IMG/VR virus record: IMGVR_UViG_3300036770_008686 | Location: 32,001-96,000 of that record | From: a virus | DNA length: 64,000 nucleotides | Reading direction: 5' to 3' (one strand) | Part shown: positions 13,938 to 55,135 of the stretch, one piece after another | Position numbering within the stretch: position 1 is the stretch's first letter | How the letters are laid out: each line of letters begins with the position of its first letter | Program-made: the position numbers and the translations under genes | Notes under the pieces: generated by a model | Databases searched by the model: none | Told to the model about the DNA's origin: nothing | What the model saw: only the letters and a program-made list of their open reading frames with translations

Positions 13938-13964
13938 AACCGACATGTCAAGGACATGTCGGTT
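13938..13964 (-). terminator. intrinsic terminator of the HTH gene
   Basis: 12-bp stem aaccgacatgtc/gacatgtcggtt followed by a T-run on the minus strand. Confidence 0.8.
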
Positions 13965-13996
13965 TTAAAAAACCAATTTGATTTTTTAGAAGAAGA

Positions 13997-14275
13997 TCAC
14001 TTCTTCTTGCTAATCCGCTCAAGGATAGCCTTGGCGTCCTCGATAAGCGTGCTCTTGCGAACACCGCCCTTAAAACGAGGAATCTCCATCTCAACACCAG
14101 CCTCCTTAAACTTCTTGCGAAGTTGAGAAAGACGAACGGAAACGCTCGCCGGCTTAAGATTAAGATCCTTGGCACACTCCTCAACAGTCTTGCCAGCAGC
14201 AGCGTGCTTGGCAACACTCTCAAGGAAACGATCAAGAGGCACCGCCTCCTGTTCCTTAACACGTGGCATTTTCAT
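13997..14275 (-). CDS. small HTH DNA-binding protein (paralog of 54803..55054)
   Basis: TVEECAKDLNLKPASVSVRLSQLRK HTH; GGAG RBS; monocistronic. Confidence 0.7.
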   Translation of the reverse strand: MKMPRVKEQEAVPLDRFLESVAKHAAAGKTVEECAKDLNLKPASVSVRLSQLRKKFKEAGVEMEIPRFKGGVRKSTLIEDAKAILERISKKK

Positions 14276-14339
14276 GCTCTCCTATTTATAACCAACGGTT
14301 GCTGCCAACAACGTGTTAGCGACCACAACCACTCACAAC

Positions 14340-14368
14340 CCTATAACGTACCAGATCAGTATTGTAAA
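14340..14368 (-). promoter_or_regulatory. sigma70-type promoter TTTACA-17-TATAGG with GGTACG in the spacer
   Basis: -35 at 14363-14368, -10 at 14340-14345, CGTACC(+) at 14347-14352. Confidence 0.65.
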
Positions 14369-14414
14369 TATTTTTCAAATATTGTTTGAATTTATATTTT
14401 ATGACTTTTAAATA

Positions 14415-14447
14415 AAAAACCCAGCATGGGTCACATGCTGGGTTTTT
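14415..14447 (-). terminator. intrinsic terminator after the AAA/VWA operon
   Basis: aaaaacccagcatg/catgctgggttttt stem. Confidence 0.8.
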
Positions 14448-14578
14448 GTGTTTCGTATTCTCTTGCTTAGGAAATGATGAAAACTAAGCAGTCTAGGATT
14501 ATATCACCAGTTTTTGCTGACATCATTCTTCTTAGCAGGTTTTAAAACTGGCAATAAAAACACAAATTATGTATGCAT

Positions 14579-16435
14579 TTAATTGTATATTCTAATGTTT
14601 TTATTGCAGATCTGTTTTAAGAATCTTGTTATAATGCCGACAGAAGAATCTACATCATCTAATACAACAAAATTATTTTTTCCATATAATCTCCTTCCAG
14701 TACCTTCCTCAAAGGCACTACACACACCTATGCCATAAACTTCTGTTTCTAACTTAGATCTAATCATATTACAAACATTGTTTACGTGTTTTTCTGCACT
14801 TTCTCCGCCATAATAACTACCGCTAGGCTCTCCATCAGATATATGAAATAGTATTCTTCTGGTGTCAGGGTAATCTAGGTAAAACTTTTTAGCTACCAAC
14901 TCTATAGCAAGTCCATCTATATTTTCACTTTTAGCTTCTATCCGAACACAAGATTCTATTTTGTTATTTCTTGGAGTATAATACTCTGTTATTAAGCAAC
15001 CATCTACACTAGATGTTTCTGCTGTGTGTCCATATATGGATATAGGGAAATACTCTCTCAAACCTTCCGATAGGGCTATGGTGGCATTTATTGCCTCGAC
15101 ATATTTATCATCCATAGATCCACTTTCGTCAACCAACAGACAAACAGATATCTTTTTTTGTGATAAAACATCTGTTTTACTCATCACTCTATCGTCATTC
15201 ATTCTTAATTTATAAAGATTGTTTTCATCTATATCGCCAGAAAAGTGTCCATAAGAACTCACAGATAACTTATTGTTTATAAAGTAAAAGTTATTTTTAA
15301 TTCCCATTATTACATTTTTTAAGTCACTAACTTTTTGTAAGTATTCACTTTTATGTGAATCGTTAGCGCTTTTAATAACAAACTTATTTTTAAGATTGGC
15401 AATGGAACATTCATCGCAATCGACCAGAGAATCAGAATCTCTGCTAGTTGTCAGTTCAGATAAACGACAATCAACCTTATTAGAAACTTCCGCTCCGAAC
15501 AATTGTTCGTCGCATATTTTAAATTCGTTTATTTTAAGACGAGAGTTGCTAAAACCTCCACCAAATTCAGAATCAGATTTTGAAATCTTTTGATTTAAAA
15601 TTTTACTTATTTCTCTAACAATTTCGTTACAAGCTTTGAATCTTTGTTTTTCTGTGTCTTCTTTGCTTAAAATATTTTCCGCTATATCTAAACAAGCATC
15701 GTAAACATCTGGTATTTCCACGCTATTGTGTTCATGAACAAGATTCCACGATATGCCTAGAATTGCAGCATCTAAACTAGGGCTCTCTACGGAACTATCT
15801 AAAAACGCCTGAACTTTTATTTTGTCTGAGCTGCTATAGTCTATTTCTTTGACAACGTGCGGCATAAATCCACACCAATTGTTTTCAATAAAGTTTTTAG
15901 CAATATTTGTTTCTAACGACTCCCAAAGCTTAGAAATAAATATTCCAAATTTGCTATCTACTGAGTTTTTAAAAGCCTGAGATCTAGAGAAATCTTCTTT
16001 TGTTATTTGGCTGTGTAAAATTTTATAAAGATATACTTTCCCCGTAAGTATATCCACCATTTCCTCTTTAACCACAGGACCAATATCTGATTCTTCTAGT
16101 AAACTATTTGGCGACAAATAAACAAAATCACTTTCAGGTGAATTGTAGTTCTCGCCATTGCTCCACTTAACCTTTAAAAGTTTATCAGAGTTTATAACAT
16201 TTATACTAGTTTGTAACTGTTCTAGTAGTTTCTTATAGGCTATTTCTTTTTTGTCTTTTTTCTTGTCGAGCCAAGAATAGCCCCAATCGTAGTGACCTAA
16301 CTTTTCCATCCAACCCCTTGTGGGGTTTTTGTATGAGCTAGTCCACCAGCCTGAAGACTCTTTTTCTTCTTTATAAAAAGAATCTTTTGTTTTATATTTT
16401 TCAAGCCACCAATAATTTTTTTTAGTCTTAGCCAA
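14579..16435 (-). CDS. VWA-domain (CobT/NorD-like) MoxR partner
   Basis: LLVDESGSM MIDAS, GHTA, HISDGEP. Confidence 0.85.
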   Translation of the reverse strand: MAKTKKNYWWLEKYKTKDSFYKEEKESSGWWTSSYKNPTRGWMEKLGHYDWGYSWLDKKKDKKEIAYKKLLEQLQTSINVINSDKLLKVKWSNGENYNSPESDFVYLSPNSLLEESDIGPVVKEEMVDILTGKVYLYKILHSQITKEDFSRSQAFKNSVDSKFGIFISKLWESLETNIAKNFIENNWCGFMPHVVKEIDYSSSDKIKVQAFLDSSVESPSLDAAILGISWNLVHEHNSVEIPDVYDACLDIAENILSKEDTEKQRFKACNEIVREISKILNQKISKSDSEFGGGFSNSRLKINEFKICDEQLFGAEVSNKVDCRLSELTTSRDSDSLVDCDECSIANLKNKFVIKSANDSHKSEYLQKVSDLKNVIMGIKNNFYFINNKLSVSSYGHFSGDIDENNLYKLRMNDDRVMSKTDVLSQKKISVCLLVDESGSMDDKYVEAINATIALSEGLREYFPISIYGHTAETSSVDGCLITEYYTPRNNKIESCVRIEAKSENIDGLAIELVAKKFYLDYPDTRRILFHISDGEPSGSYYGGESAEKHVNNVCNMIRSKLETEVYGIGVCSAFEEGTGRRLYGKNNFVVLDDVDSSVGIITRFLKQICNKNIRIYN

Positions 16436-16466
16436 GATAAACTCCTTTTAAAATGCTTGTTTTATT

Positions 16467-17348
16467 TTATCTTGACCCTTTTAATCTAGGCTTGGCGGCT
16501 TTCACATCACTAACACCAAATTTACCTTGTATAAGTTGAAGAACACCAGCCCTTTCGCTAGTAGTTCCACCTTCTGAGCTAAACAAATTGCTAATGGTGA
16601 ATGTGAGACTATCCACTCCACCATCTACAAAATCTTCGGCTGCAGCGATAAGCTGTCTAGTTGAGAATCCCGATGAAAAGCTACTTGATATTCCAACACT
16701 CTTTTTTCTAATTTGGTTTGCAATATCAACTAGGCTTATTGCATCTTTTACTTCTACGCCTGTCCTCTTAATTAAGAGTTCGGCTTCTTTTTCTGGTGAG
16801 AGGTACTTTACCTCTACAACCCTACTAAATCTATCTCTTAAAGCATTATCTGTGGCACTGGTTCCACTGTATCCAGCACCTTCGTTCATGGTTGCAAAGA
16901 AAACAACCCCGCAGCCAAGTCTGATTACATCGTTTTTTTCTTCTAAATAAGTAAAGCCTCTGTTATCTAACAGAGGGAGCAAAGTATTCATCACATTAGG
17001 ATGAACCCTGTTAATCTCGTCAAGTAGAATAACAATGTTTCCGGCTCTCACAGCCCTATCAAACTGACTTTCATGCCAAACAACATTGCCGTTTTCTATT
17101 TTTTTGTAACCAAACCAATCCCTAGGCTCTCTTAAATTAGCACAATCCATAATCAACATAGGAAGATTGTGGATTGCAGCATAGTGCATGGCCATTTCAG
17201 TTTTACCTGCCCCGTGCGGGCCTTGCAAAAGAACTTTTTGTGTTTTTTTGCTTCTATTAGATTCAATTCTTTGAAAAAGATTGTTTATATCATCTTCAAT
17301 AAAATAAGTATCATTAACAATAGGATTGAAAATACCGTTATTCATCAC
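16467..17348 (-). CDS. MoxR-type AAA+ ATPase (CbbQ/NorQ/CobS-like)
   Basis: GPHGAGKT, ILLDEINR, ATMN, ALRDRF, STRQL. Confidence 0.9.
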   Translation of the reverse strand: MMNNGIFNPIVNDTYFIEDDINNLFQRIESNRSKKTQKVLLQGPHGAGKTEMAMHYAAIHNLPMLIMDCANLREPRDWFGYKKIENGNVVWHESQFDRAVRAGNIVILLDEINRVHPNVMNTLLPLLDNRGFTYLEEKNDVIRLGCGVVFFATMNEGAGYSGTSATDNALRDRFSRVVEVKYLSPEKEAELLIKRTGVEVKDAISLVDIANQIRKKSVGISSSFSSGFSTRQLIAAAEDFVDGGVDSLTFTISNLFSSEGGTTSERAGVLQLIQGKFGVSDVKAAKPRLKGSR

Positions 17349-17820
17349 TAACCTTTCTATAAATGGATTTTGGAAAAACTACATTTCTATTGTAATAACA
17401 TTCCATACTACAATAATTTTCTTTAATATTTTTTTTAGTTGGCTTATTAAGCGATATAGATTGTTGATAATTTGTTCTTTTAAAGCTATTCCCACAACTA
17501 ATGCATGTGAGATTTAAAAAAGAATGCTTGCTCCATTTTGCATCTTTTTTAACATTAATTTGAACTCTTAATGCCTGCCTACATTCAAGACTGCATGTTT
17601 TTGTTTTAAAAAAATCTTCTTTTTTACAAATTACACAAGTATTTTTTACTTTTTCGTGTCTTTCCCAAGGAATTTTACTTCCCTCTTTTTCGGCTTTCTT
17701 AAGCAGATTATATATTGCCTGTCTGCTTACGCCATATTCTTTTGCCAAAAAAGAGACAGAAACTCCATTTTGTCTCTTTGAAACTATTGTTATTTGCAAA
17801 CCATTTAAAGGAGTGCTCAT
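17338..17820 (-). CDS. HTH plus Zn-finger protein (homing-endonuclease-like DNA-binding modules)
   Basis: LAKEYGVSRQAIYNLLK, CVICK, TCSLEC, CISCG, YCSMEC. Confidence 0.65.
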   Translation of the reverse strand: MSTPLNGLQITIVSKRQNGVSVSFLAKEYGVSRQAIYNLLKKAEKEGSKIPWERHEKVKNTCVICKKEDFFKTKTCSLECRQALRVQINVKKDAKWSKHSFLNLTCISCGNSFKRTNYQQSISLNKPTKKNIKENYCSMECYYNRNVVFPKSIYRKVSDE

Positions 17821-18042
17821 TTTAAATATTTAAAAAAAATGTATAGTTTATAAGTTATTATTTAAAGGCAGCTTATTTATTTTGCATTCTTCTACAACTT
17901 TTGTGATTGTTATGCACAAAGCATAATTCTCTAGATCTTTAACGTTGGATAATTCACTATTTATTAGCTTGTTTATTTTGCTGCATATTGTTTCGCAGTC
18001 TAATCTTTTGTTCAGCAGAATTACCATTTTTAATTATTATTC

Positions 18043-18273
18043 TCAAGTATCAGACTGTCTTTTTCTTTTGAGAATATTGGGGTATTTTTTTCTTATTTCT
18101 TCTAATTGTTGTTCACAATAATTGCAAAGAGAATTCATTCTTCTTTTTACAAACATGTCATCAACTGGAAACTGCACCGTATGTTTTTTTTCACAGTAAC
18201 CACAAGGTTTTTTAATTTTTACAATACCATTTTCCAAAGAAAGTACAGAATATTTTCTTTTTTTTCTTCTCAT
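18043..18273 (-). CDS. small Zn-binding hypothetical protein
   Basis: MRRKKRKY...CGYC...CNYC; start moved downstream of the tRNA. Confidence 0.55.
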   Translation of the reverse strand: MRRKKRKYSVLSLENGIVKIKKPCGYCEKKHTVQFPVDDMFVKRRMNSLCNYCEQQLEEIRKKYPNILKRKRQSDT

Positions 18274-18389
18274 CGAGTTTTGCCCCCTGAAAGACAGCGG
18301 TATTGTAGCACGGACCATTTTTTTTGCAAATAGTTTTTTTTTAGAAACTAAAATAGAAATATAACCTAGTTTGGATAAGTTGCTGAAAA

Positions 18390-18463
18390 TAGGCCGACTA
18401 GGACTTGAACCTAGAACCCCCAAATTATGAGTTTGGTGCTCTAACCGATTGAGCTATCGGCCC
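18390..18463 (-). tRNA. tRNA anticodon CAU, probably Ile2 (lysidine); CCA not encoded
   Basis: GGGCCGA-TAGCTCAATCGGTTAGAGCA-CCAAA CT CAT AA TTTGG-GGGTT-CTAGG TTCAAGT CCTAG-TCGGCCT-A; lies 26 nt after the tilS stop. Confidence 0.92.
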
Positions 18464-18489
18464 ATTTTCAGAAACTTTTCACCTAAAAA

Positions 18490-19206
18490 TCATACCATAA
18501 AACTTTTCAATTTCAAGCTACTTTCTATTTTTCTTTTTGCGAATTTTTCAAGAGATAATTTATTTTTTCTCATCTCTGGTAAGATGGTGTTTCTAATCCA
18601 ATTTCTTCTACTACCTTTTGAAACTTTATTGGTTTCATCTTCTACTAAATATTTGTTGTAGTTATTTCTTTCAATAAATTGAATAAAGTCCTTTTTTTTG
18701 GTCAACAAAAATGGATGAATGATTTTAAACCTAGACTCACCAAAGTTAAATTCACTCTCCAACTCAATAGGAGTGTGGTTTGGATGTCCTCTAAAGCAAT
18801 TTAGTAGATAACTTTCCACATAATCATTAAGATGATGTGCTGTGATGATCGTGGGTGTTAGATCTCCTAAATAAAGAACTTGTTTTGCAAAAGCAGAAAT
18901 ATCTTTGTAGAATTCAATTCTTAAATTTCTAAAATCAGCTTCTGTATGACATTCTTTGGTATCTAATGTAAGCGTTGGACTATGGGTAATAAAATCGCTC
19001 TTTGTATTAAAATCCTTACAAAACTCTAAAAACTTTTTTTCCATTAAATCGTTTTGAGGGCGGAGCTTGTGGTTAAAATGAACAGGAACAACTTCATACC
19101 CAGCAATTTTCATCCAAATAAATGCGGCTAGACTGTCCACGCCCATACTTAAACTAAATAAATATGGTTGTTTTTTATCCACAACTTGTTTAATAATTTT
19201 AATCAC
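18490..19206 (-). CDS. tilS: tRNA(Ile)-lysidine synthetase, short form (N-terminal catalytic domain)
   Basis: SMGVDS PP-loop variant, HFNHKLR, TAHHLND, CFRG, HPFL, EDETN, RRNWIR. Confidence 0.85.
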   Translation of the reverse strand: MIKIIKQVVDKKQPYLFSLSMGVDSLAAFIWMKIAGYEVVPVHFNHKLRPQNDLMEKKFLEFCKDFNTKSDFITHSPTLTLDTKECHTEADFRNLRIEFYKDISAFAKQVLYLGDLTPTIITAHHLNDYVESYLLNCFRGHPNHTPIELESEFNFGESRFKIIHPFLLTKKKDFIQFIERNNYNKYLVEDETNKVSKGSRRNWIRNTILPEMRKNKLSLEKFAKRKIESSLKLKSFMV

Positions 19207-19536
19207 TTAGCCACTGCTTCTCATTTTCTCGTTAAAAGTTCTTAAAAAAGGAACTATTTTATTTGGAATTCCTATCTTAACAGTTTTAACTTTTTCTTCA
19301 AAATTATTTGTAACTTTATCGCAATTTTCTAAATCCATGGTATCTTGAATATCTTGAAGTTCTTCTAAAAATTTTTCCACTTCAAAACTTGGAACGAAAC
19401 CAGAGCAAAATTCTTCATTTTCAGAAATTTTCAGTATCATTTCTGCAAAGTTTAGTGCCCATTCAGGTGCTGTTTCTATATCCTCTCTAGATAAAATACC
19501 TTTTTCGACTATTTGAATCCTAGTTTGTTCATTCAT
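19207..19536 (-). CDS. hypothetical protein
   Basis: 109 aa ORF. Confidence 0.6.
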   Translation of the reverse strand: MNEQTRIQIVEKGILSREDIETAPEWALNFAEMILKISENEEFCSGFVPSFEVEKFLEELQDIQDTMDLENCDKVTNNFEEKVKTVKIGIPNKIVPFLRTFNEKMRSSG

Positions 19537-19558
19537 TTAAAAATTTTTCTAATTAGAT

Positions 19559-19666
19559 TAGTTCAAATAATTATAGCGAATAACTTCACCAAAAGGTGGC
19601 TTAACATCGCTAGTTCAAATCATTATAGCGAATAACTTCACCAAAAGGTGGCTTAACATCGCTAGT
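19559..19666. repeat. 52-bp tandem duplication of the VWA-like gene 3' end (1 mismatch)
   Basis: Units at 19559-19610 and 19611-19662 plus tagt; a/c difference at 19569/19621. Confidence 0.9.
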
Positions 19667-20866: not shown

Positions 20867-20887
20867 GTTTGTGTCCTTTCAAGAAAA

Positions 20888-20924
20888 CTGCTGCTAGGGT
20901 TTCTCTTGTTGCCCCTAGCAGCAG
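20888..20924 (-). terminator. hairpin between AAA and VWA genes (attenuator or stabiliser)
   Basis: 12-bp stem ctgctgctaggg/ccctagcagcag followed by TTTTCTT on the minus strand. Confidence 0.65.
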
Positions 20925-20938
20925 CCTCTTCACAAAAT

Positions 20939-21997: not shown

Positions 21998-22066
21998 CAG
22001 TTATAAATCCTTATTTTTGTGAAGAACGAAACCACGGAGCTTCCGTACCAGGGTTTACTTTTTAAA

Positions 22067-23427: not shown

Positions 23428-23430
23428 AAC

Positions 23431-24504
23431 CTAATCTTCTTCTTTTTTATATTTTAATTGGCTTTTTTGACAATCACTATCTTGTATGTCTTGTCTCATA
23501 CCAAGATATGTTGGTTGATATAAGTTGCCTGATTGCTTGTAAGCATACAAGTACCTAATTTCAACAATCGCTCCCACCTCAGGAACGTCATAATTAACTG
23601 GTATTGTCACCTTTCCACAATCTATAAGTTTTCTTCCATTCAACAAACCTAGTTTGACACTTCTTTTTCCTTCATTTATTTCGGTAACAAAACAACTACA
23701 AGTTGCATAAAATTTATACTTAACATAACTACCACCGCTTGATGGCCTACCAATATAATACTTGGCAGATTTTTCTTTGAAAACAACACCTTCTTCATTT
23801 TTTTCAAATGATTTTTTATAAAATTCTTCTTTTTCTTGCTTTGTGTAGTAACTATCGGTCAAGCAAACAGACTCAGAGAAAGACTTGAACTTGTCTAGAT
23901 ATTTTAATCTTTCAACTAGAGTAAAGTTTTCTAATTTTTCACCATCATATTCTAGAATGTCGAACACATAATATTTTTCACCAACAAGCTCGCCGTCAAG
24001 TAAAAAATCTTTGTCATGTTTTTCGGAGTCATTCCAAATCACAGTTGGGATGTTACAATTAAGACCTCTCCTGTTATAGGCTCTTAATGTTTTATCTTTT
24101 TTATGTAACATAAATCTCACACCATCAAATTTGGGCTGGGCTAACCAGTTTTCATCATTTATGTAATCTTGTAATTGGCTTTCTTTTATTGGATTCAAAA
24201 GAACACACTTAGACTCAGAAATAGTTTCGGGAAGATTTTCAGGTACGTGTATTGCCTGAGATTGATCCAGGGGTATCTTTTGATAACCTTTTCCAGTTTT
24301 TTCCTTCAACAAAGACTCATATATCTTTTTAGCTTGGTCCAAACTAACTGCATTATTGGTTTTAGTGCCACTTTTTAAAGCACCTCCTCTTCTTCCGTAG
24401 CTAAAATTAACAACAAAACCGCCATTCTTTTCTTCTATTGCAGCATTATACAGTTTGTCGCTAACGCCTTCTTTGTAGTACAAACTAGTAGATTCAATTG
24501 TCAT
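23431..24504 (-). CDS. ATP-dependent DNA ligase with N-terminal WGR domain
   Basis: SDKLY...YGRRG (WGR); QPKFDG, DGEL, FDILE, EGVVFK, VKYK; C-terminal OB fold. Confidence 0.88.
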   Translation of the reverse strand: MTIESTSLYYKEGVSDKLYNAAIEEKNGGFVVNFSYGRRGGALKSGTKTNNAVSLDQAKKIYESLLKEKTGKGYQKIPLDQSQAIHVPENLPETISESKCVLLNPIKESQLQDYINDENWLAQPKFDGVRFMLHKKDKTLRAYNRRGLNCNIPTVIWNDSEKHDKDFLLDGELVGEKYYVFDILEYDGEKLENFTLVERLKYLDKFKSFSESVCLTDSYYTKQEKEEFYKKSFEKNEEGVVFKEKSAKYYIGRPSSGGSYVKYKFYATCSCFVTEINEGKRSVKLGLLNGRKLIDCGKVTIPVNYDVPEVGAIVEIRYLYAYKQSGNLYQPTYLGMRQDIQDSDCQKSQLKYKKEED

Positions 24505-26433: not shown

Positions 26434-26450
26434 CCTTGAAAAAATTAAAA

Positions 26451-26803
26451 TGGAGGCGAGGGGAGTCGAACCCCTGTGTTGTGATAATTTTAATATGACC
26501 TCTACAAGTTTATTTTGTTCATAAATTTTGAGAAAGACTAAAGAACAAACAACATTCATCTTTCCGTACCAACAAGTCTTAGTCTAGGACCCGTTGGCTA
26601 TCCTAGAAGCAGAAGGATTTTACGACGATTTTTCGGACGCTACCTTCAATCGCTTCCTAAAATCGTTGCTGCTATTTATTAAGCAGCAAGAGCTAACTGA
26701 TTTGTGCCAGTTAAAGCATTAATCTGGTTTTAAAGTAGCCTCCAGATCAACTACTACTTGCTAGTCACAGTAAATTTTATCCAATCGATACCTTTACGCC
26801 CCC
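26451..26803 (-). ncRNA. ssrA: tmRNA, tag peptide (A)ALTGTNQLALAA; CCA not encoded
   Basis: 5' GGGGGCG pairs with 3' CGCCTCC-A including G3:U70; T-arm AGGGG TTCGACT CCCCT; tag ORF at 26679-26717 with its stop in a ttgctgc/gcagcaa hairpin; 353 nt. Confidence 0.93.
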
Positions 26804-30882: not shown

Positions 30883-30953
30883 AGGCACCTATCGGAGTCG
30901 AACCGATCTCTACGGATTTGCAATCCGCTGCCTAACCGCTTGGCTAAGGTGCC
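30883..30953 (-). tRNA. tRNA-Cys(GCA); CCA not encoded
   Basis: GGCACCT-TAGCCAAGCGGTTAGGCA-GCGGA TT GCA AA TCCGT-AGAG-ATCGG TTCGACT CCGAT-AGGTGCC-U73. Confidence 0.93.
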
Positions 30954-34114: not shown

Positions 34115-34333
34115 ATGATAAGTTTTAAAGAATATGTTAAAAAAGTTTTCGGTGAAGATTTAGTTGGAATTTATCCTCCTTTGTATGGTGGCGTAGGAAA
34201 CTACCCCAAAAGCTACTTTACTACATACACACCTTACATTGATGCATCAAGAAAAGTAAAAACAAATCCTCCAAATAAGAAAAAAAGAAAGAAGAAAAAA
34301 AAGTCAAGAAGATCAAAAAGAAAGTCAACATAA
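34115..34333 (+). CDS. small basic protein with capsid-targeting-like N-terminus
   Basis: MISFKEYV...; K/R-rich tail; TATATAA 4 nt upstream. Confidence 0.6.
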   Translation: MISFKEYVKKVFGEDLVGIYPPLYGGVGNYPKSYFTTYTPYIDASRKVKTNPPNKKKRKKKKKSRRSKRKST

Positions 34334-35245
34334 AGGATCATACAAAGGACAATTTTTATTTAAGTATTTTAAAGCTTCGAGTTTTATCTGTCTAACTCTT
34401 TCTCTTGTAATATGCAACTCACTTCCTATCTCTTTTAGAGTTTTGCCGACACCTTCACTATCTATTCCGTAGTAGTCTTTAAGAACTTTTATTTTAACAT
34501 CAGGTCGATGTATTTTTTTATTTTCTTTAAGTTTTTCCAACAAACTATGAAGGAAAGCTTTATTATATTTGTCGTTAATAAATGAGAAATCACTTCCTTT
34601 TTCATCTACTGCGACGATTTTATTCTCAGACAACTTTTCTTGTTGCCGCTTACTATTGATGTAATCTCTATGAAGATTAGATTGCAAAACCCTGGTGCAA
34701 TAAGTTGAGAACTTGTATCCCATCCTATAATCAAAAAGATCAACAGCCTTTAGCACATGACAATAGCCATTGGAAAAAAATTCGTCTCTTTCAAAAGTAT
34801 CGCTAGAGTGGTATCTGTGAACTCTCTTAAATATCAATCTTAAATTAGACTTAATAATGATGTTTCTTGTTTCTTGGGCTGTTCTTATTAGTCTTTCTAT
34901 TTCTTTTAAAGATTTTTCTCCAAGTCTTTCAATATTAACAGGTTTACTATATTTTGGGCCGTCTTTAGACTCTTCAAAACCCAAAGTCAACTTTGTAATT
35001 CTGTATTTTAAATAATTTAATTTTCTAAACAAATGTTCTTCTTGCTCTCTAGTTAATAGAGGAGAGCAGTTAAACAAATTGTTTTCTTTTGTTTTCTTGT
35101 AACAAAGATTTATGTCTTCTAAAATTTTGTTTCTACTTGAAGATTCAAAGACTTTTTCAAAATAAAATCTCTTTGGCAAAGAATCTAATATTTTTTGAAT
35201 TCTAATTTTTTTGTCCATTTTAGTCAAGGTTTTTTGAGTATTCAA
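34325..35245 (-). CDS. RNA polymerase sigma-70 family factor
   Basis: LLTREQEEHLFRK (1.2), SNLRLI, AVDLFDYRMGYKFSTY (2.3), TLKEIG...TRERVRQI (4.2). Confidence 0.9.
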   Translation of the reverse strand: MNTQKTLTKMDKKIRIQKILDSLPKRFYFEKVFESSSRNKILEDINLCYKKTKENNLFNCSPLLTREQEEHLFRKLNYLKYRITKLTLGFEESKDGPKYSKPVNIERLGEKSLKEIERLIRTAQETRNIIIKSNLRLIFKRVHRYHSSDTFERDEFFSNGYCHVLKAVDLFDYRMGYKFSTYCTRVLQSNLHRDYINSKRQQEKLSENKIVAVDEKGSDFSFINDKYNKAFLHSLLEKLKENKKIHRPDVKIKVLKDYYGIDSEGVGKTLKEIGSELHITRERVRQIKLEALKYLNKNCPLYDPLC

Positions 35246-45163: not shown

Positions 45164-45170
45164 AAATTAA

Positions 45171-45533: not shown

Positions 45534-45578
45534 ACAAATTTACACAATCAACGCAATTGTGTAAATGTCTCTAAAGTA

Positions 45579-46448: not shown

Positions 46449-47394
46449 AATCGTTTAAACACTCTTTAAACTTAAGCTTTTCTTCATCGGTCCAGTCCAA
46501 AGTTAATATATCAAATATTTCTTTTTCGTTAAAAGAACCAGACATTTTATAAGCACTTAAAATCGTTCTAGTACTTATACTTCTTTCAACTTTGCAATTT
46601 TTCCGAATATATTGCAGTTTAGAAGTAAGAGAAATGCTATCAGTAATTTCAAGTTCTAAATTTTCATCATAATCAATAAAAGTTTTACTGAGAGCAAATC
46701 TATCCAAAAATGCTTTGTCTAGAATTTCTCTTCCACTGTACTCGAAACTTCCGTGTCCCCAAGTGTTTGAAGCAACTACAAGATGAAAATTTTCATGTCT
46801 TTTTGCTACAGGGTTTTCTTTCCTATTAGGGATGGACATTTTACCATTAGCTATAGCAGAATTAATAACGAGCAAAACATTAGAATCTGCTGCGTCTATT
46901 TCATCTAAAAGAAAAACGCCACCATTTTCATATAAATCAACAAAGCTGGTAGGAATATAGGTGCCGTCTGCAACCATTCTACCTGTTAAGTGAGATTCAC
47001 TCATTCCAGCAGTACAACTAATATGAGAAAAACTTAAATCTAGTGCCTTGGAAAGTTGTTCGCTAAGATAGGTTTTTCCAGATCCAGTTGGGCCAGACAA
47101 CATTAGTTGTTTATGTATGCTCAAAAGGGTAAGAGCCTTATCAAAATCTCTATGTTGTCTACCTGTGAGGTTTACCTCTTTTTTATTCGGAAGAACAACA
47201 ATATAAGGCTGTAGGACTTTGGCCGCTTCTCTTATTTGCTTTTGAAAGTCTTCTTTGAGTTCAGGGATAAACTCTGGTAGATGTTTTTTTGTAGCCTTTT
47301 TAATCATCCCAACTATGGGAAGTTTAATATTAAGACTTCCTTGAACCACATCTTTGGTAATCTTTTCTTTTTTTCTATCTAAAGTTGTTTGCAT
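46432..47394 (-). CDS. MoxR-type AAA+ ATPase (CobS/CbbQ-like)
   Basis: GPTGSGKT, FLLDEID, ASNTWG, AFLDRF, STR. Confidence 0.9.
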   Translation of the reverse strand: MQTTLDRKKEKITKDVVQGSLNIKLPIVGMIKKATKKHLPEFIPELKEDFQKQIREAAKVLQPYIVVLPNKKEVNLTGRQHRDFDKALTLLSIHKQLMLSGPTGSGKTYLSEQLSKALDLSFSHISCTAGMSESHLTGRMVADGTYIPTSFVDLYENGGVFLLDEIDAADSNVLLVINSAIANGKMSIPNRKENPVAKRHENFHLVVASNTWGHGSFEYSGREILDKAFLDRFALSKTFIDYDENLELEITDSISLTSKLQYIRKNCKVERSISTRTILSAYKMSGSFNEKEIFDILTLDWTDEEKLKFKECLNDFEEAA

Positions 47395-47483
47395 TTTTAT
47401 ATTGATGTTATTAGAAATTATTCGTCACAATAGACTGTCGTACCGGTATTAATAATTTAATTACTTTTTTAATAAAATTAGAC

Positions 47484-48572: not shown

Positions 48573-48614
48573 TTTAAATCAAAAATTATTTAAGAAAAAA
48601 AGCTTAAATTGCCA

Positions 48615-49133
48615 TTATTGTCCTTGAAAAAACCAATAGCCATAAACACAACGGGTTCCTCCCCTAGATGGGTCATGATTATCGTATATAACCCCGTCAA
48701 CTACAGCAACAAGATGCTTGCTTACACTAACCACAAGCCTCCCTGTGGGTAGTTCTTCTTTCTTGAGATGAACTTTACAACCACTTCCCACAGCCATAGT
48801 CGGAACCCAAGTCCAACCTATGCTTTGCATATATTTTTTTATAGTTTGCTTATAAACGCCAGTGTTTGAACTACTTCTTTTTTTACCTTTTCTAGGGCGT
48901 TCGCTTTTAGCTAAATAATTCAAGGAATCATAAACTTCTTGGTAGTCTTTTTGAGTGGCTATGCTTATAGCTCTACAAACACAATCACCAGAATCTTTTG
49001 CTTTATACCCAGCATCAACTCTTCCGCCGTCTGTTATAATGATTTTCATAATTAAAAGTCTAATTGCAGAAGTTTTCAACCCTGCCACATTGGCATTAAA
49101 CTTTTCCTTGTGCCAATATGGCAGAAAAATCAC
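48615..49133 (-). CDS. papain-fold (C39-like) putative peptidase
   Basis: GDCVCRAISIAT (Cys), KHLVAV.DG...D (His/Asp); real start probably MKIIIT. Confidence 0.55.
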   Translation of the reverse strand: MIFLPYWHKEKFNANVAGLKTSAIRLLIMKIIITDGGRVDAGYKAKDSGDCVCRAISIATQKDYQEVYDSLNYLAKSERPRKGKKRSSSNTGVYKQTIKKYMQSIGWTWVPTMAVGSGCKVHLKKEELPTGRLVVSVSKHLVAVVDGVIYDNHDPSRGGTRCVYGYWFFQGQ

Positions 49134-50464
49134 TCTTTAAACAATATTTCTTTTTCTCTTAATATCTGAACAACAGAGTTGTAGTGTTGTTTGTTCTTTA
49201 CTGGGTGATTTTGTTTTTCAACAAACTGGATGATTCTGCCCCTAGAGACTTCTACGTTATAAAGCATTTGATTTGTGGCACAATCCATAACAGCAAACAC
49301 AGCAGTCTCTCCTTTCTTGACTTTTTGAGCATAGGTTGCAATGCAATTGCTCATTATGCTAGACCATTCTTTGAGGTCGTGACTACTGGTAGGTATTAAG
49401 AACCTAAGGTTACCAACCTCTAAATCATGCAATGCAAAAAGCTTTTCAAAATTAGTTTCTATAGAAAGAGAAATAGCAGGATCTTGCAATCTCATGTATT
49501 CTCTTCTAACATAGTCGTAAATTTCTCTGCACGAAGTTGCTATCTCTATATTTTGAATATTGAAATTAAGACCAATCTTAATTTGACTATAATATTCAGC
49601 GATGTCGATTAAAACATGATCATTTTCTGCACTTCTTAATAGATTTATTATCTTCTTTTGACTATATTTGCCATTCTTTTCGATACTAAAATCTTTTAGA
49701 AATTGGTTGATCTTAACATAGGCGTCCAAGCCAACGTTGTTTGTTGGAACTTTAAATGTTCCTTCCTCAATAAGACCGTATATATTGTCGGGTTGAAGAA
49801 TATCTCTTAGTGCTTCGCCAACCAACAAAAAATTGTAATCGAAAAAGTTATTTTCTGGATTAAAAATATTTTTAATAGCAAACTTTTTAAGCTTTTTGGC
49901 AGTAAAACCAAAAGATTCAACAAGTATATCGTCGAGAGATTTTCTACTTCTAAAAAGCTCCAAATACTTGTTTGGACAATTGGCCACATTGTAAAAATGA
50001 ATATTACTCTGGCCAATATTTTTCTTGTTTAATATACTAATGCTTTGATCTATAGAAGAGTCAAAATAAACAAGATAAAAGCCATCCTCAGTAATTGGAT
50101 ACGCATTTTTTTGAATAAGAGCATGAAGCATTTCACCAGCAGAATCATTATCCATTCTGGTCTTCATGTTGAACCAGAAATTAAAGAGACTTTTGAATAC
50201 CCAGTTATCCTCTTTAATAGCTAGGAACTGGTTTCCTAAGATAGAAGGAATAGGTTCGTCTTTGTAACAAACAAGGCCGTCTCTTACCACAAAGCCATCT
50301 TTGTTAAGATTTTTTGAAGGATCTATTTCTGACTCTATAGAGTCATACTTTTTTTCGCTGATTAGCTTTTTAATTTTTTCGTATCTATAGTCATCTTTGC
50401 TTATAGTGTAAGTCTTACCAGAAAAATTTACTATAATAGAATTTTTTAATATATAGTACTTCAT
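49130..50464 (-). CDS. RIIB N-terminal domain fused to a PcfJ-like C-terminal domain
   Basis: G.TY.I...GLVCY...NFW.N...ITEDGFYLVY (RIIB-like); P.S..DL.EW...MSNCIATY...V..G (PcfJ-like); downstream of rIIA. Confidence 0.7.
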   Translation of the reverse strand: MKYYILKNSIIVNFSGKTYTISKDDYRYEKIKKLISEKKYDSIESEIDPSKNLNKDGFVVRDGLVCYKDEPIPSILGNQFLAIKEDNWVFKSLFNFWFNMKTRMDNDSAGEMLHALIQKNAYPITEDGFYLVYFDSSIDQSISILNKKNIGQSNIHFYNVANCPNKYLELFRSRKSLDDILVESFGFTAKKLKKFAIKNIFNPENNFFDYNFLLVGEALRDILQPDNIYGLIEEGTFKVPTNNVGLDAYVKINQFLKDFSIEKNGKYSQKKIINLLRSAENDHVLIDIAEYYSQIKIGLNFNIQNIEIATSCREIYDYVRREYMRLQDPAISLSIETNFEKLFALHDLEVGNLRFLIPTSSHDLKEWSSIMSNCIATYAQKVKKGETAVFAVMDCATNQMLYNVEVSRGRIIQFVEKQNHPVKNKQHYNSVVQILREKEILFKE

Positions 50465-50754
50465 TTATCTAAGCCTTTGTACTTAATATACAATAGTATT
50501 TCGTTTTTGAAATCCTCTTCTTTAAAGAGTCTTGCAAAATCTCTCAATCCAAAAAGTAATTTATACTTTTCTTGTATTTTATTAAAATCTTTATTTATTT
50601 GTTCAACAAGCTTTTCGACTATATCTAATTGCTCAAAAATATCTTCAAAATCTTGATTGCCCGAAACCTCTTTTCTAAGACTAGATTTCAAGTACTGGAC
50701 GAGTTCTGCTTTATAGGCGTTTGAGTAATCAGAGTTAGAATTTAAAGCATACAT
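50461..50754 (-). CDS. hypothetical protein between rIIA and the rIIB-like gene
   Basis: 97 aa, coupled on both sides. Confidence 0.65.
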   Translation of the reverse strand: MYALNSNSDYSNAYKAELVQYLKSSLRKEVSGNQDFEDIFEQLDIVEKLVEQINKDFNKIQEKYKLLFGLRDFARLFKEEDFKNEILLYIKYKGLDK

Positions 50755-52961
50755 TATCGGTTCGACCTACTCTTACTGTTTATGTAGAAAATAATTTCTT
50801 TGATCATGGTATCATCTCTTCTATTGCCATAATTAAATGAATAGCTATAGCTGTGAAATTGGGAAAGATGCTTAATTAAAGGATACTTTTCCAGTATGCT
50901 TTGCTTAAGTTGCTCTATTTTATCTTTCTGCAATTTAGCTTTGCTAAAAGCTTCATACAAGTCTAATATTCTTTCGGGAATATCAACATGGTTATTTGCG
51001 TTATTTTGTTTCTGAGGAATTGCTGAGAAATATTTTTTAATATTTTCGCAAACAATTTCTCCAACATATTTTCTTAAAACCTCTAAGGAGCCATCTTCAG
51101 TATTGTTGAAGTGATTTCTGATTACATCGTCCGAAATCTGTATATGCTGAGGAAAGTTCTCGATTAGGGTGCAATATTCTATGGTGTTGTCCAGCAAACA
51201 AAGAACTTCATATTCTTTTTTACTACACTTCACAACCTCCATATTTTTGCCCTGACTGTATATGAACTTAAGATTTTGATAAAAATCAGAGTTATCAAGT
51301 TCATACATGGGATCGCTACTAAAGGGAACTATTACATAGGTCTTTTCTGATTCAACAAGTTCTTCTAAACTAATATCAACCTTAGAATCAACTTCTACTT
51401 TGTTAGAGTATCTTTGACCATTAGGAATAAGCTTCCTCAAAGTAACACTGCCGGCTTCTTTTTTGGGTTTAGCCGGAGTTTTTGCAACCTCTACTTCAGA
51501 TATATACCTTGCTTTAACAAAGTTAACAAAAGGAACGGGATTTGCAATCCTATTAATATAGTAAACGGTTCCAGGATATGACCCATTTACACTATCGGGT
51601 TGTCTTGCAAGAAGAATGCTTCTAATTTTTTCTTTAAAAGCAAGCTCTGAAATAAAATTGGCTGGCAAATCGTTAATTACAAAGAATATGTCATTTATGT
51701 CTCTATTGCTAATGTTGATAATTGCATTGTCTGTTCTTTTCAGAACATGCCTAGACTTTTGCTTGTCAAGAAAAAATTGACTAACTTCATTTATGGAGGG
51801 AGAAGTAAGTTGTCCGTTCTTAACACTATACTTTATACCATCTTTAGTGAAAGTACATTCTTCATTGTTTCTTGCAAAATTTTCATCTTTGAAACCGGGC
51901 ACTTGATTAAGATGAAAAATTTGTTTGCACTTATTGATCTTTTCAACATATTCAGTTATAGAAGTAGGCTCTGCTTTGAAAAAGTTGTTTACGTGATCTG
52001 CCAAAAGAGAATTTACATCTTTACAAAGCTGATTTACTTTGGCTTTGCTACTATCCTTATCAGATATACTCTCTCTAGTAGCACTAACTTCCAGAACACC
52101 ATTATCTACTTCAATAAAATTGATAGAATTAGGAGCAGAAGTAGAGTTTCTAAGTTTCTCAACTTCTGGGCATTCTCTTAAAAATTTGTTGATACTATAA
52201 GGAATTTTGTCAATTAAAACAAAAATTTCTGCATTGTGTGCATCGAACAGTCTCTTAACAAGATCTGTTTTGTTCAGCAAAAGCCAATTCTTTTCTTTTG
52301 CTATAATATTTGTTTCTAAGTTAGTGTAGTCCTTTGGAATCTCAATTTCGGTAATACCCTTGAGGTCGGGCTTTACATCCCAAAAGAATGTACAACGATA
52401 AACTGCATTTACAAAGAATTCAATATCGGACTCTTTAACTGGTATTTGTATTTCTACGCCATTTTTCTCAGACGTATTTTCCTCGTTTATAAGCTCAAGA
52501 GTGCCATTGCTATTCTTACCTGTATGGGCGGCATAGGTTCGAGCGACACCATCATGGTAGCTAACAACAACAAAGCTGTCTGTGTATGCCCAAGCACTTT
52601 TTGCACCAATACCAAACCCACCAGTTTGGATGTTATCTTTTCTTTTTGTGCTACTTCCATAGTTCACAAAAACATCTTTTACCCTATCAGGGCTTAATCC
52701 AACCCCATAGTCTCTAATCTTAAGTGTGCTTTCCAACTTAGTAGGCAATGTGACACAAAGAGGGGTGTTTTCTCTTCCAGCCTCTCTGTGACTATCTCTG
52801 CCGTTGCACAAGTATTCTTGTGTAAGGGTCCTAATTGGATTAGAGTAAAGCCTATTTCTTAGAATGTCAATAATGGTGCTAACATCACCAATTCCGAAAT
52901 CCATGCTTTGCATGTCAGAGTTGTTTGTATCAACATTACTATGTTCGGTATTTATTTTCAC
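50754..52961 (-). CDS. rIIA: RIIA-like protein (GHKL/Hsp90-type ATPase N-terminus)
   Basis: LYSNPIR...QEYLCNGRDSH, IRDYGVGLS, STK...TGGFGIGAKS..AYTDSF.V.S...G. Confidence 0.85.
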   Translation of the reverse strand: MKINTEHSNVDTNNSDMQSMDFGIGDVSTIIDILRNRLYSNPIRTLTQEYLCNGRDSHREAGRENTPLCVTLPTKLESTLKIRDYGVGLSPDRVKDVFVNYGSSTKRKDNIQTGGFGIGAKSAWAYTDSFVVVSYHDGVARTYAAHTGKNSNGTLELINEENTSEKNGVEIQIPVKESDIEFFVNAVYRCTFFWDVKPDLKGITEIEIPKDYTNLETNIIAKEKNWLLLNKTDLVKRLFDAHNAEIFVLIDKIPYSINKFLRECPEVEKLRNSTSAPNSINFIEVDNGVLEVSATRESISDKDSSKAKVNQLCKDVNSLLADHVNNFFKAEPTSITEYVEKINKCKQIFHLNQVPGFKDENFARNNEECTFTKDGIKYSVKNGQLTSPSINEVSQFFLDKQKSRHVLKRTDNAIINISNRDINDIFFVINDLPANFISELAFKEKIRSILLARQPDSVNGSYPGTVYYINRIANPVPFVNFVKARYISEVEVAKTPAKPKKEAGSVTLRKLIPNGQRYSNKVEVDSKVDISLEELVESEKTYVIVPFSSDPMYELDNSDFYQNLKFIYSQGKNMEVVKCSKKEYEVLCLLDNTIEYCTLIENFPQHIQISDDVIRNHFNNTEDGSLEVLRKYVGEIVCENIKKYFSAIPQKQNNANNHVDIPERILDLYEAFSKAKLQKDKIEQLKQSILEKYPLIKHLSQFHSYSYSFNYGNRRDDTMIKEIIFYINSKSRSNR

Positions 52962-53149
52962 TTTTATATCCTTTGTTTTATTGTTTGCGAATCAAATCTT
53001 TCACGTACCGAGTGAGAGGATTTTATTTTTTTTAAATTTCCTCAAACACCATTATAGCGAATCCTCGAGTTTTTTGTTTTCAAATAAAAACTTGATTTTA
53101 TTTTTTTGTAAATTATAATAAGAAGGGGCTAAGAAATAAAAAAACAAAA

Positions 53150-53575
53150 ATGAAAAAACTAAACAACAAAGAACTAGAGAGCTTTGCAAAAGAAATAAGA
53201 AAAGTAATATTCAAAAACTTAAAAGAAGAAGAAGATGAAAAACAAATCAAAAATTTAGAATTAAAAAGAGTTCACAATATAATACTTGAAAAATTGAAAA
53301 AAGTAAAATTATTTAATAAAAACATGGAAGAAATATTAACAGTAAATGAGTCTGTGCTTATAATCAAAAATTATGCCGAACGTGCAGATGAAAACACTTG
53401 GTTGATAAACGACTCAGAAAAAACTTGTGCCAAAATTGCACAAGATATTTTCTCAAGAATTATCAATAACACTTTATCTAAATTAAGCAGCGAAGGACTA
53501 TTAGAATGTCACTATGATTCAGAAGAAAATGACTTTATATTTAATGTTAAAGAAACCAAAGAAACTACTGACTAA
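53150..53575 (+). CDS. hypothetical protein
   Basis: 141 aa ORF. Confidence 0.65.
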   Translation: MKKLNNKELESFAKEIRKVIFKNLKEEEDEKQIKNLELKRVHNIILEKLKKVKLFNKNMEEILTVNESVLIIKNYAERADENTWLINDSEKTCAKIAQDIFSRIINNTLSKLSSEGLLECHYDSEENDFIFNVKETKETTD

Positions 53576-54575
53576 TAATTTCCATACATTCTTCTGTCTC
53601 GTTTTCAAATAACTTTTCAAAAAAGTTTTCAATAGAATCCGGGTCTAACAAACTAATTTTCATAACATACTCTGGTATGGTTTCTTTGGTTTCTTCTTTA
53701 TAATGCTTGTAAAAAGAAAGAAGTCTTCTCCAAACTTCTGAACTAATTTGTATGTATCTTGGTTCATCCACTCTTTTATCACTAAACTGATAAACTAATT
53801 CGAGAGTCTCGGCTGGAATGTTCTGCAGCCCATGCAAGCAAATGCACTCCATTCCACCTTTAACCATTTCTTGGCATAAAACAACAAAAGTTTTGGCGTT
53901 GCATACGACTTTTGGGTTTTCGCTTCCCTCTTCATATTCTACTTTGGAGCTACCAATGGCAATGTTTCCAGAAAAATCTTCATCAGAGACAAATCTTGAA
54001 TAATCTATCTTCCAGTAAGAACTAACAGTTCCCACGCTAAGAGAATCATAAAGAGGAATAATGTCGGGAATTATCTTTTGTAGTTCGTCCTTGACCAAAT
54101 GATGCAAGGTATAAAAAGCATGTATGCTAGCACCCTGTATAATGCAGTTTAGCAATATTCTCTTGTTAATTAACTTTTGAGTCTCTTTGTCTAGATTGCT
54201 ATAGGCAACCTTTTCCTTGTTTTCGGTTTTGTTAAGATCTACATCATCTCCATTTAGATCAACATCTAAAATGTCTTCTGGTATTCCAAAAGACTCATAG
54301 ACTGCTTTTTTGGCCAGTTTCTCAAGTTCTTCTTTGTGGCCGAACTCTTTTTCAATTATATTGTGAAAAACTTGGCTTTGATAAGAAATATCAGTATTAA
54401 TTCCAAGCTTTTCAGATCTTTCTTTTACGAAATCGTATGAATTTTTACTTAAATTGTTTCCAAAATAAACAAGATTACGATTTTTCTTAAACACATGAAA
54501 GGGAGAATCGCCTTTACGGAGATTCAACCAAAAGTTTCTAATACCAGGATTAACATGCAGACTATTTTCGTACAT
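53565..54575 (-). CDS. conserved large-phage hypothetical protein
   Basis: 336 aa; KRILLNCIIQGA...LCQEMVKG...DEPRYI. Confidence 0.7.
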   Translation of the reverse strand: MYENSLHVNPGIRNFWLNLRKGDSPFHVFKKNRNLVYFGNNLSKNSYDFVKERSEKLGINTDISYQSQVFHNIIEKEFGHKEELEKLAKKAVYESFGIPEDILDVDLNGDDVDLNKTENKEKVAYSNLDKETQKLINKRILLNCIIQGASIHAFYTLHHLVKDELQKIIPDIIPLYDSLSVGTVSSYWKIDYSRFVSDEDFSGNIAIGSSKVEYEEGSENPKVVCNAKTFVVLCQEMVKGGMECICLHGLQNIPAETLELVYQFSDKRVDEPRYIQISSEVWRRLLSFYKHYKEETKETIPEYVMKISLLDPDSIENFFEKLFENETEECMEIISQ

Positions 54576-54684
54576 TTTTAGGCTCAGGCATCACAGAAGG
54601 TTTTGGACTCTTAAATGGATCTTGTTTAGGAGGACTCTTTTCAGGAGTTTTTACAGGCGTTTTTACTGGCATTGTTGTGGGCAT
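54562..54684 (-). CDS. 40-aa Pro/Lys-rich peptide, possibly the frameshifted N-terminus of 53565..54575
   Basis: MPTTMPVKTPVKTPEKSPPKQDPFKSPKPSVMPEPK; GGAGAA RBS. Confidence 0.55.
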   Translation of the reverse strand: MPTTMPVKTPVKTPEKSPPKQDPFKSPKPSVMPEPKNVRK

Positions 54685-54745
54685 TTTATTTTCTCCGATG
54701 GACCAAAAACGTACCGAGTTTATTTTTTTATTTTTAGTCAAATAA

Positions 54746-54791
54746 GCCACAACCCTCTTTAGGTGTTAACTTCTCTAAAGAGGGTTGTGGC
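54746..54791 (-). terminator. intrinsic terminator of the second HTH gene
   Basis: 17-bp stem gccacaaccctctttag/ctaaagagggttgtggc. Confidence 0.8.
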
Positions 54792-54802
54792 AAAAGAACA
54801 AA

Positions 54803-55054
54803 CTATTTATTTTTCTTTAGGGTCTCTAATATTTTTTTTGCTTTTTCTACAATATTAGATTCTCTTCCCTTAGAAAAACTTCTTAGTTCAACTCCGCCTT
54901 TTTTAAGTTTATTAGCACGTATACTCACCGCACTGGGTTTAATTCCAAGAAAATTCGCAACGTCAGACACTTTCGCAAAGCTCTCATTTTGATATGCCTC
55001 GAGAAATTTTTCAAGAGAAACATTCTTCTTACCAGACTTTTTTGTAGTAGCCAT
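54803..55054 (-). CDS. small HTH DNA-binding protein (paralog of 13997..14275)
   Basis: VSLEKFLE...VSDVANFLGIKPSAVSIRANKLKK.GVEL...AKKILE. Confidence 0.7.
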   Translation of the reverse strand: MATTKKSGKKNVSLEKFLEAYQNESFAKVSDVANFLGIKPSAVSIRANKLKKGGVELRSFSKGRESNIVEKAKKILETLKKNK

Positions 55055-55107
55055 TTCAACGCTTTCCTTTTTCTAGGGAACTTGTTCACAACGTGTGAAC
55101 TCAAAAA

Positions 55108-55135
55108 ATACTATGCTTGGGTCCCGTAATGTCAA
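55108..55135 (-). promoter_or_regulatory. sigma70-type promoter TTGACA-16-TAGTAT
   Basis: -35 at 55130-55135, -10 at 55108-55113. Confidence 0.7.

Follow-up and report, generated by a model that had tools for sequence, protein, structure and literature searches.

Stem-loops at the 5' end of a transcript stabilise bacterial messenger RNA (mRNA), according to the passages of PMC3997798 that cite Emory et al. 1992 and Bouvet and Belasco 1992 (its references 93 and 95), and the PeSL elements of T4-like phages are composites of a terminator, formed by the stem-loop, and an early promoter (PMC2839356, PMC4122927). Here two leader hairpins are described which precede two paralogous genes for small stand-alone helix-turn-helix (HTH) proteins, c1 and c2, in a stretch of 64,000 nucleotides (the window; bases 32001-96000 of the 135,789-bp IMG/VR record IMGVR_UViG_3300036770_008686, or G000). 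The record has a GC content of 31.7% and a CheckV completeness of 68%, and its source is an uncultured large aquatic phage, as assigned from rIIA/rIIB, CobS/CobT, a transfer-messenger RNA (tmRNA) and an own sigma factor in the window. The hairpins are real and structurally conserved but phylogenetically shallow, and they are of a known general kind: related phages do not keep the ACGUU loop which both carry in the window, and for this reason an ordinary stem-loop at the 5' end of the mRNA is the most likely reading. The genes and hairpins are as follows.

13997..14275, minus strand: c1, gene for a small HTH protein, 92 amino acids (aa) as annotated (open reading frame (ORF) list, BLASTP to c2)
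14304..14320, minus strand: c1 leader hairpin GCUAAC-ACGUU-GUUGGC, one U.G pair, present in the minimum free energy (MFE) fold
54803..55054, minus strand: c2, gene for a small HTH protein, 83 aa, AT-rich (ORF list, BLASTP)
55084..55100, minus strand: c2 leader hairpin GUUCAC-ACGUU-GUGAAC, all pairs Watson-Crick, present in the MFE and centroid folds

The two proteins share 31 of 81 aligned residues (38%) in BLASTP (E 2e-12). In the ViennaRNA folds both hairpins belong to the MFE structure of their leader, with 7 bp and a CGU triloop since the loop A and U pair; regarding c1, a predicted lower stem stretches the structure to about 14297-14331. The distance from the end of the stem to the annotated ATG is 28 nt for c1 and 29 nt for c2. 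The shared 9-mer ACACGTTGT occurs at only these two sites in the entire 135,789-bp record, and among the 101 ACGTT sites on both strands a flanking stem of at least 5 bp is found at only two, those of the c1 and c2 leaders, which rules out a chance coincidence. Apex strings that do recur elsewhere in the genome are nearly all composed of A and T only. A gathering-threshold Rfam scan of the whole window returned the tmRNA and two tRNAs only and no family for the hairpins, and E-value scans of both leaders gave far sub-threshold matches only, mostly on the neighbouring terminator, by which a known RNA family is excluded.

The leader comparison comprised five sequences: c1 and c2 of the window, c1 and c2 of the relative G001 (a 181-kb IMG/VR contig), and c2 of L016, which was the sole new usable locus from a single metagenome scan. 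Most orthologs lie in Logan/ENA contigs (clusters P0002-P0004 and P0007-P0016), outside this comparison. Both cassettes are present in G001 too, with a spacing of about 40 kb like that in the window, which marks the cassettes as old residents and not recent insertions. Its c1 leader reads CGATGGC-ACGTT-GCTGTCG, with loop and closing pair as in the window; two pairs are changed on both sides and one on one side, two pairs are G.U in G001, and the pairing survives each of the five substitutions that separate the two c1 stems. RNAalifold on these two leaders found the hairpin unaided, as the only consensus structure, with two compensatory pairs. The c2 leader of L016 has TTGACT-16-TAGTAT followed by GGTTCAT-GCTGT-GTGAACC, so that the arms are kept while the loop differs from that of the window and the spacer and remaining leader are fully diverged. 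In the c2 leader of G001, TTGACA-16-TAGTAT is followed at the same place by GCACTT-TATTTCG-AAGTGC, in which stem and loop are both new; read from the sequences, four of six pairs differ on both sides from those of the window. RNAalifold on the three c2 leaders returned no structure, as MAFFT failed to align the G001 hairpin.

In the gap-free alignment of four hairpins, each of the 24 cells is paired (100%) and three of six pairs are changed on both sides; the covariation score is 0.889 compared to 0.43 in shuffles (1 of 500 reached the observed value) and at most 0.25 in slid controls. The hairpin is part of the MFE fold in all five leaders of the c1/c2 subfamily. Folded as the sense strand, the five hairpins have a uniform stability of -6.6 to -7.6 kcal/mol, a value which four or five G.U pairs underlie in all five, whereas the antisense strands range from -2.7 to -7.2 kcal/mol and fold worse in four of the five, the wobble pairs there becoming A.C mismatches (for the c1 hairpin -7.3 sense and -3.0 antisense). 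The ACGUU loop is present in three of the five leaders, with other loops in c2 of L016 (GCUGU) and of G001 (AUUUC/UAUUUCG). No ACGTT hairpin was found in the leaders of nine further paralogs in G001 and two in the window record, which have no common hairpin among them, nor at the c1-like and c2-like genes of two other large-phage contigs (251 and 323 kb); the hairpin as a feature of the whole family is ruled out by these paralogs and distant genes. The hairpin is therefore a feature of the c1/c2 subfamily in this phage lineage only, and just three of the five leaders have the ACGUU apex. At the level of these sequences, the pairing is selected and the loop sequence is generally not.

These results bear on a first-pass annotation of the window, made from its letters without database searches. 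It had listed two similar HTH ORFs with a shared motif, and both minus-strand ORFs are present, paralogous and with the motif as written; the 6-bp stems with identical ACGUU loops, which it placed at the positions given above, are there by sequence; and the covarying RNA-type stem that it proposed for the two leaders is borne out by the pairing, the double changes and the score. Its view of the identical ACGUU as a conserved feature fails, given the other loops of both c2 orthologs and the family members without an ACGTT hairpin, and its alternative of a cruciform DNA is disfavoured by the G.U pairs. The autoregulation and the nucleoid-like role that it suggested are guesses. The search it had suggested, for stem-ACGTT-stem upstream of homologs, succeeded for the c1 ortholog of G001 only, the c2 orthologs having the hairpin with other loops and the paralogs and distant genes lacking it.

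The signals surrounding the two cassettes, together with the sigma factor gene and the divergent neighbour of c2, are as follows.

55108..55135, minus strand: c2 sigma70-type promoter TTGACA-16-TAGTAT (scan; ortholog sequences)
54746..54791, minus strand: hairpin after c2 with a 17-bp stem (from the sequence; loop longer than 8 nt, not flagged by a simple terminator scan)
54709-54715: GGTACGT for the gene after c2
14346..14352, minus strand: GGTACGT, promoter-like motif before c1, inside the spacer of the sigma70 site of the first-pass annotation
14279..14283, minus strand: c1 Shine-Dalgarno sequence AGGAG, 3 nt before the ATG at 14275 and 9 nt before that at 14269
13938..13964, minus strand: c1 terminator, 12-bp stem and T-run (scan)
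14415..14447: bidirectional terminator-like hairpin with a 14-bp stem, which insulates c1 from the upstream CobT-like gene (scan)
34325-35245, minus strand: phage sigma-70-family factor, 306 aa, Sigma70_r2 and Sigma70_r4 above the Pfam cut-offs
55173-55910, plus strand: divergent gene upstream of c2, 245 aa (MFKSF...), conserved in L016 and G001, without a Pfam hit

The hexamers of the c2 promoter, TTGAC(A/T)-16-TAGTAT, are kept in all three orthologs, the spacer being fully diverged and the leader outside the hairpin saturated with changes. The c2 hairpin begins 7 nt past the -10 hexamer in the window (about +1 to +3) and 7-10 nt past it across the three orthologs, which by promoter geometry would fit a start at +1 to +4 and so place it essentially at the 5' end of the transcript. 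The hairpin at 54746-54791 is probably the c2 terminator. Regarding c1, the site TTTACA-17-TATAGG of the first-pass annotation was not reported by the sigma70 scan, TATAGG lacking the required final T, and the hairpin starts 17-26 nt after the motif GGTACG across the window and G001. GGTACGT occurs at eight sites in the window (4011-54715; 1.06 expected), seven of them on the minus strand, which carries nearly all genes of the window, and the bias of GGTACG to the coding strand is 28:2 in the window record and 49:3 in G001. Most copies lie between genes, and the consensus is A/T-rich...TTTTnnGGGTACG-N9-TG; a tRNA-Ile begins 9 nt after one copy, and the motif also precedes c1-like genes in two large-phage contigs (IMGVR_UViG_3300027963_000035 and 3300023174_000040). 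A literature search for the GGTACG motif found nothing. The phage sigma factor, which has an ortholog in G001 (23697-23870), is a candidate reader of these promoters. From these motifs, c1 appears to be driven by the strand-specific GGTACG promoter-like motif and not by a good sigma70 site, and the two genes probably differ in temporal class, given the sigma70-type promoter of c2 and the candidate phage-sigma reader for c1. Of the claim that each gene has its own sigma70 promoter, ribosome-binding site and terminator, the c2 promoter and hairpin and the c1 terminator and AGGAG stand, while GGTACG replaces the sigma70 promoter of c1; likewise the label immediate-early fits c2 and not c1.

The spacing of AGGAG to the two possible start codons, along with the orthologs (two ortholog clusters of c1 begin at MPRVK), favours the second ATG (14269) as the probable start of c1, which would give a protein of 90 aa. 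Directly upstream of this Shine-Dalgarno sequence stands TATAAATA (14283-14290, minus strand), the T4 late-promoter consensus; it is probably fortuitous, since it is absent from the leader of the G001 ortholog. Beyond c1, the terminator overlaps a perfect TTGACA-16-TATAAT (13951-13924) for the next small gene and so forms a composite terminator/promoter. On the plus strand a scan reads the hairpin-borne TTCACA as the -35 element of a divergent promoter, which was rejected because the spacing, read from the sequence, is not kept in L016.

The reading preferred, with moderate confidence, is that the hairpins are sense-strand stem-loops of the 5' untranslated region in which pairing and stability are selected, and whose function is most likely stabilisation or modulation of the message. 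The genes c1 and c2 would be anciently diverged paralogs, each with a leader stem-loop held by selection on pairing and on a roughly constant stability of about -7 kcal/mol, but not generally on the loop. In c2 the stem-loop would lie at the very 5' end of an early transcript initiated by sigma70, and in c1 the hairpin would top the longer predicted stem shortly after a GGTACG-type start that is probably dependent on the phage sigma factor. The likeliest function is the classical one of 5'-terminal stem-loops, in which the stem-loop would hold off decay that begins at the 5' end (the RppH and RNase E pathway) and thereby set the lifetime of the message; it may additionally be a binding site for a putative protein partner. 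Such a role is in line with the position of the c2 hairpin and with an excess of hairpins downstream of sigma70-like sites: 19 of the 38 coding-strand sites in the two phages have a hairpin of at least 6 bp within 40 nt, compared to about 28% of random 40-nt windows of the AT-rich genome that hold some hairpin of this size (z about 2.9), which suggests that hairpins just after sigma70-like sites are a general habit of the early transcripts of these phages. The resemblance to the 5' stabilisers of Escherichia coli ompA and papA lies in a short stable hairpin near the presumed 5' end, upstream of the Shine-Dalgarno sequence, with structure conserved over sequence. Stabilisers of this type start within about 0-4 nt of the 5' end of the transcript. 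In contrast to those stabilisers, the c1 hairpin is 17-26 nt from its promoter motif, the shared apex is not a stabiliser feature, and the 5' ends in the phage are those predicted from the promoters.

Several points weigh against this reading. The transcription starts are placed by promoter geometry alone, and with the c1 hairpin at its distance from GGTACG it is only the weaker predicted lower stem that would come near the 5' end. The covariation derives from an alignment anchored on the structure and from five sequences overall, and the more distant c1-like and c2-like genes have no clearly conserved hairpin. Compared to shuffled sequences the whole leaders gain no stability (z -0.1 and -0.4 for c1 and c2; -0.0 to -1.5 over the five leaders); given this and the frequency of hairpins in random windows, the significance is to be sought in the position, the paralogy and the common apex, not in thermodynamics. 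Finally, a generic stabiliser does not account for the exact C-ACGUU-G in c1 and c2 of the window and c1 of G001. The loop and two closing pairs are identical in c1 and c2 of the window genome, which is too improbable for chance; the shared apex may reflect ancestral retention or a local constraint by a shared factor in the lineage.

An inverted repeat of this size could also be a DNA operator, bound by a dimer of the HTH protein (autorepression) or of a paralog, which would block initiation or promoter escape at the start. The encoded proteins are generic DNA-binding HTH domains, and with respect to a strong sigma70 promoter the 17-bp repeat of c2 would span about +1 to +17. Moreover, c2 of the window and of L016 have identical recognition helices and identical arms (GTTCA...TGAAC) while centre and flanks are diverged, and c2 of G001, in whose recognition helix the first residues are STI instead of SAV (two substitutions), has another repeat, GCACTT...AAGTGC, which looks like co-evolution. 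For c2, arms and recognition helix that seem to change together make the operator a serious rival. The c1 orthologs show the opposite of what is expected of a dimeric HTH operator: with identical recognition helices they keep the centre (CACGTTG) but differ in the arms at three of six positions, which disfavours a DNA half-site. Co-conservation of half-site and recognition helix is accordingly seen for c2 (window and L016) and not for c1 (window and G001), in one pair each. The G.U pairs would be mismatches in DNA (1/6 and 2/7 in the two c1 repeats), the antisense strand folds clearly more weakly, and neither repeat recurs elsewhere in either genome, hence there is no regulon. Taken over both genes the operator is unlikely, though it has the most weight among the alternatives to a stem-loop in the message, and it is the compensatory pairing, the tolerance of G.U, the uniform stability, the sense bias and the unconserved c1 arms which favour the RNA stem-loop over a DNA site.

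The shared apex is addressed more directly by a specific RNA operator or a nut/boxB-like site, in which one phage factor, a translational repressor or an antiterminator that would carry the polymerase past the strong terminator behind each cassette, would read ACGUU (A-CGU-U). The apex is identical in c1 and c2 of the window, unique in 135.8 kb and kept in c1 of G001 despite the changes in the stem, and each hairpin has a promoter on its upstream side and, on its downstream side, a short gene after which come a strong terminator and more genes, a layout which resembles lambda pL-nutL-N-tL1. With the nut boxB of lambda and P22 the hairpins have in common a stem of 5-6 bp, a 5-nt loop, two copies with the same loop and a location before a small regulator gene and a terminator; unlike boxB, however, the loop is not GNRA-like, the loops of the two cassettes differ in the related phage and distant relatives are without the hairpin. 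Neither the same loop at all sites nor a boxA, as in a lambda-type nut system, was found, G001 having ACGUU in c1 and AUUUC/UAUUUCG in c2 and the leader alignments showing no shared boxA-like element; no N-like arginine-rich protein was identified either, though none was specifically searched for. One factor could not read both loops of G001, L016 lacks the ACGUU loop in c2, and there are only two sites per genome; a loop-reading factor is weakened by the differing loops of G001 and L016 and must be regarded as improbable. The T4-type translational operators (the gp43 hairpin and the RegA and gp32 sites) likewise have a leader hairpin just upstream of the ribosome-binding site, through which autogenous control could act, but the hairpins described here end 23-31 nt before the ATG without overlap with the Shine-Dalgarno sequence, and the HTH is of the DNA type without a known RNA-binding motif. 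It is equally doubtful that C-ACGUU-G forms an RNA operator, read by the HTH protein or another phage factor, which cross-regulates an early (c2, sigma70) and a later (c1, GGTACG) copy post-transcriptionally, with relatives of other loops re-tuned; the self-complementary ACGU could even mediate a loop-loop contact between the c1 and c2 messages.

About as improbable is a remnant without function, in which the leader would be a coding fragment, decayed after partial tandem duplication or conversion among cassettes, with the hairpin and the 9-mer left over. In the c1 leader of G001, the loop, the 3' arm and the next 17 nt recur 108 bp downstream in c1 codons 22-31, as a direct repeat of 24/29 (L001 1464-1492 and 1572-1601, i.e. 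G001 46813-46841 and 46921-46949; score 33 compared to a maximum of 27 in 1000 shuffles). This leader and the ORF share one open frame of 113 aa, and the family is multi-copy and arranged in arrays. The repeat is a hint of coding sequence as the origin of the leader, or of exchange between the two. The similarity of leader and ORF is, however, not significant in c1 of the window (p 0.8) or in any c2, the five stem substitutions in c1 that all keep pairing are unlike neutral decay, and the stability of the hairpin is uniform across five diverged leaders.

Among other described arrangements, the PeSL cassettes are alike in that small stand-alone ORFs are bracketed by an own promoter and a stem-loop terminator, and a PeSL-type composite is indeed present after c1 at 13964-13924 (minus strand); the ACGUU hairpin itself differs from PeSL in lying downstream of the promoter, in the leader, without a T-run. 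A hairpin promoter of the N4 type was rejected as the largest ORF has 1040 aa, so that no giant virion polymerase is encoded in the DNA examined; a scan for a T7-like polymerase domain found none, with the control for that family matching nowhere. A Rho-independent attenuator was rejected because neither stem is followed by a T-run, and a structure that sequesters the Shine-Dalgarno sequence because the folds show no consistent pairing with it.

Both c1 and c2 belong to an expanded HTH family which is much larger than two genes. In G001 a profile search found 11 copies; an array at 131-143 kb (L014) holds seven, with near-identical C-terminal halves, and others lie at positions including 93 and 98 kb (L015). 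Beyond the window, its record contains a third full copy (C1:22109-22432) and another that is cut by the contig end (C1:1-75). Exhaustive profile searches yielded many metagenome relatives of 75-110 aa, the high-scoring long proteins being generic tandem-HTH repeats. With 47-56% GC and a GC3 of 0.36-0.58, the majority of the family genes stand out as GC-rich islands from genomes whose GC content is 30-32%. In the GC profile the region of c1 (13997-14340) is such an island, with about 50% GC; c2 and the third copy of the window record are not GC-rich.

The encoded protein is a generic three-helix HTH according to its AlphaFold2 model (predicted local distance difference test, pLDDT, 77.5), with helices at 14-21, 29-36 and 40-52 and a C-terminal helix. 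The best Foldseek matches of the model were the DNA-binding domains of MntR, AsnC and LysR with E-values above 0.2, and profile searches against PDB sequences gave weak matches to generic winged HTH domains only. Among the Pfam HTH families GerE, Sigma70_r4_2, HTH_24 and Fe_dep_repress, all scores of c1 and c2 were below the curated cut-offs, the best being GerE for c1 (21.4; gathering cut-off 23.5) and Fe_dep_repress (23.2; cut-off 26) and HTH_24 (21.0; cut-off 21.9) for c2. The three-helix core with a C-terminal helix is thus like that of stand-alone winged or tri-helical HTH regulators (HTH_24, the N-domain of DtxR/MntR, GerE or sigma region 4-like proteins), but the phage protein is without an effector or dimerisation domain and scores below the Pfam thresholds.

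Further genes of the window that place the source genome are listed below.

18389-18464: tRNA-Met
26448-26803, minus strand: tmRNA (Rfam, 104 bits), tag peptide GTNQLALAA, one GGTACG copy inside
30883-30953: tRNA-Cys
50754-52961: rIIA (PHROGs)

Rfam and ARAGORN together assigned the one phage tmRNA and two tRNAs in the window. PHROGs further assigned an rIIB-like gene, two CobS-like ATPases, a CobT-like vWA protein, a ligase and an HNH enzyme; the gene for the CobT-like protein adjoins c1 on its upstream side, and c2 is located three genes upstream of rIIA, with two genes between. DNA and HTH-protein searches of a collection of cultured phages (INPHARED GenBank records) found no relatives, and the best matches of rIIA were Ruegeria phages at only about 29% identity, both of which suggest a phage lineage without a close cultured relative. 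For c1, word-indexed searches yielded five clusters with identities of 81-99%, and for c2 they yielded 12 (68-100%), all of them metagenomic, with identities of 68-89% for the c2 orthologs (L016 80%, G001 68%). Nothing was gained from a search of a collection of genome contigs, and a further metagenome match, L017, was discarded as a false positive that encodes a GC-rich membrane protein.

Taken alone, the hairpin is an ordinary kind of element. If it acts as a stabiliser or as an operator, it would be a modest but usable entry point to gene expression in a lineage of large uncultured aquatic phages. The broader context matters more: the phage sigma factor, the strand-specific GGTACG motif and the GC-rich, many-copy family of tiny HTH proteins outline a transcription programme, which is a more promising lead than the hairpin.

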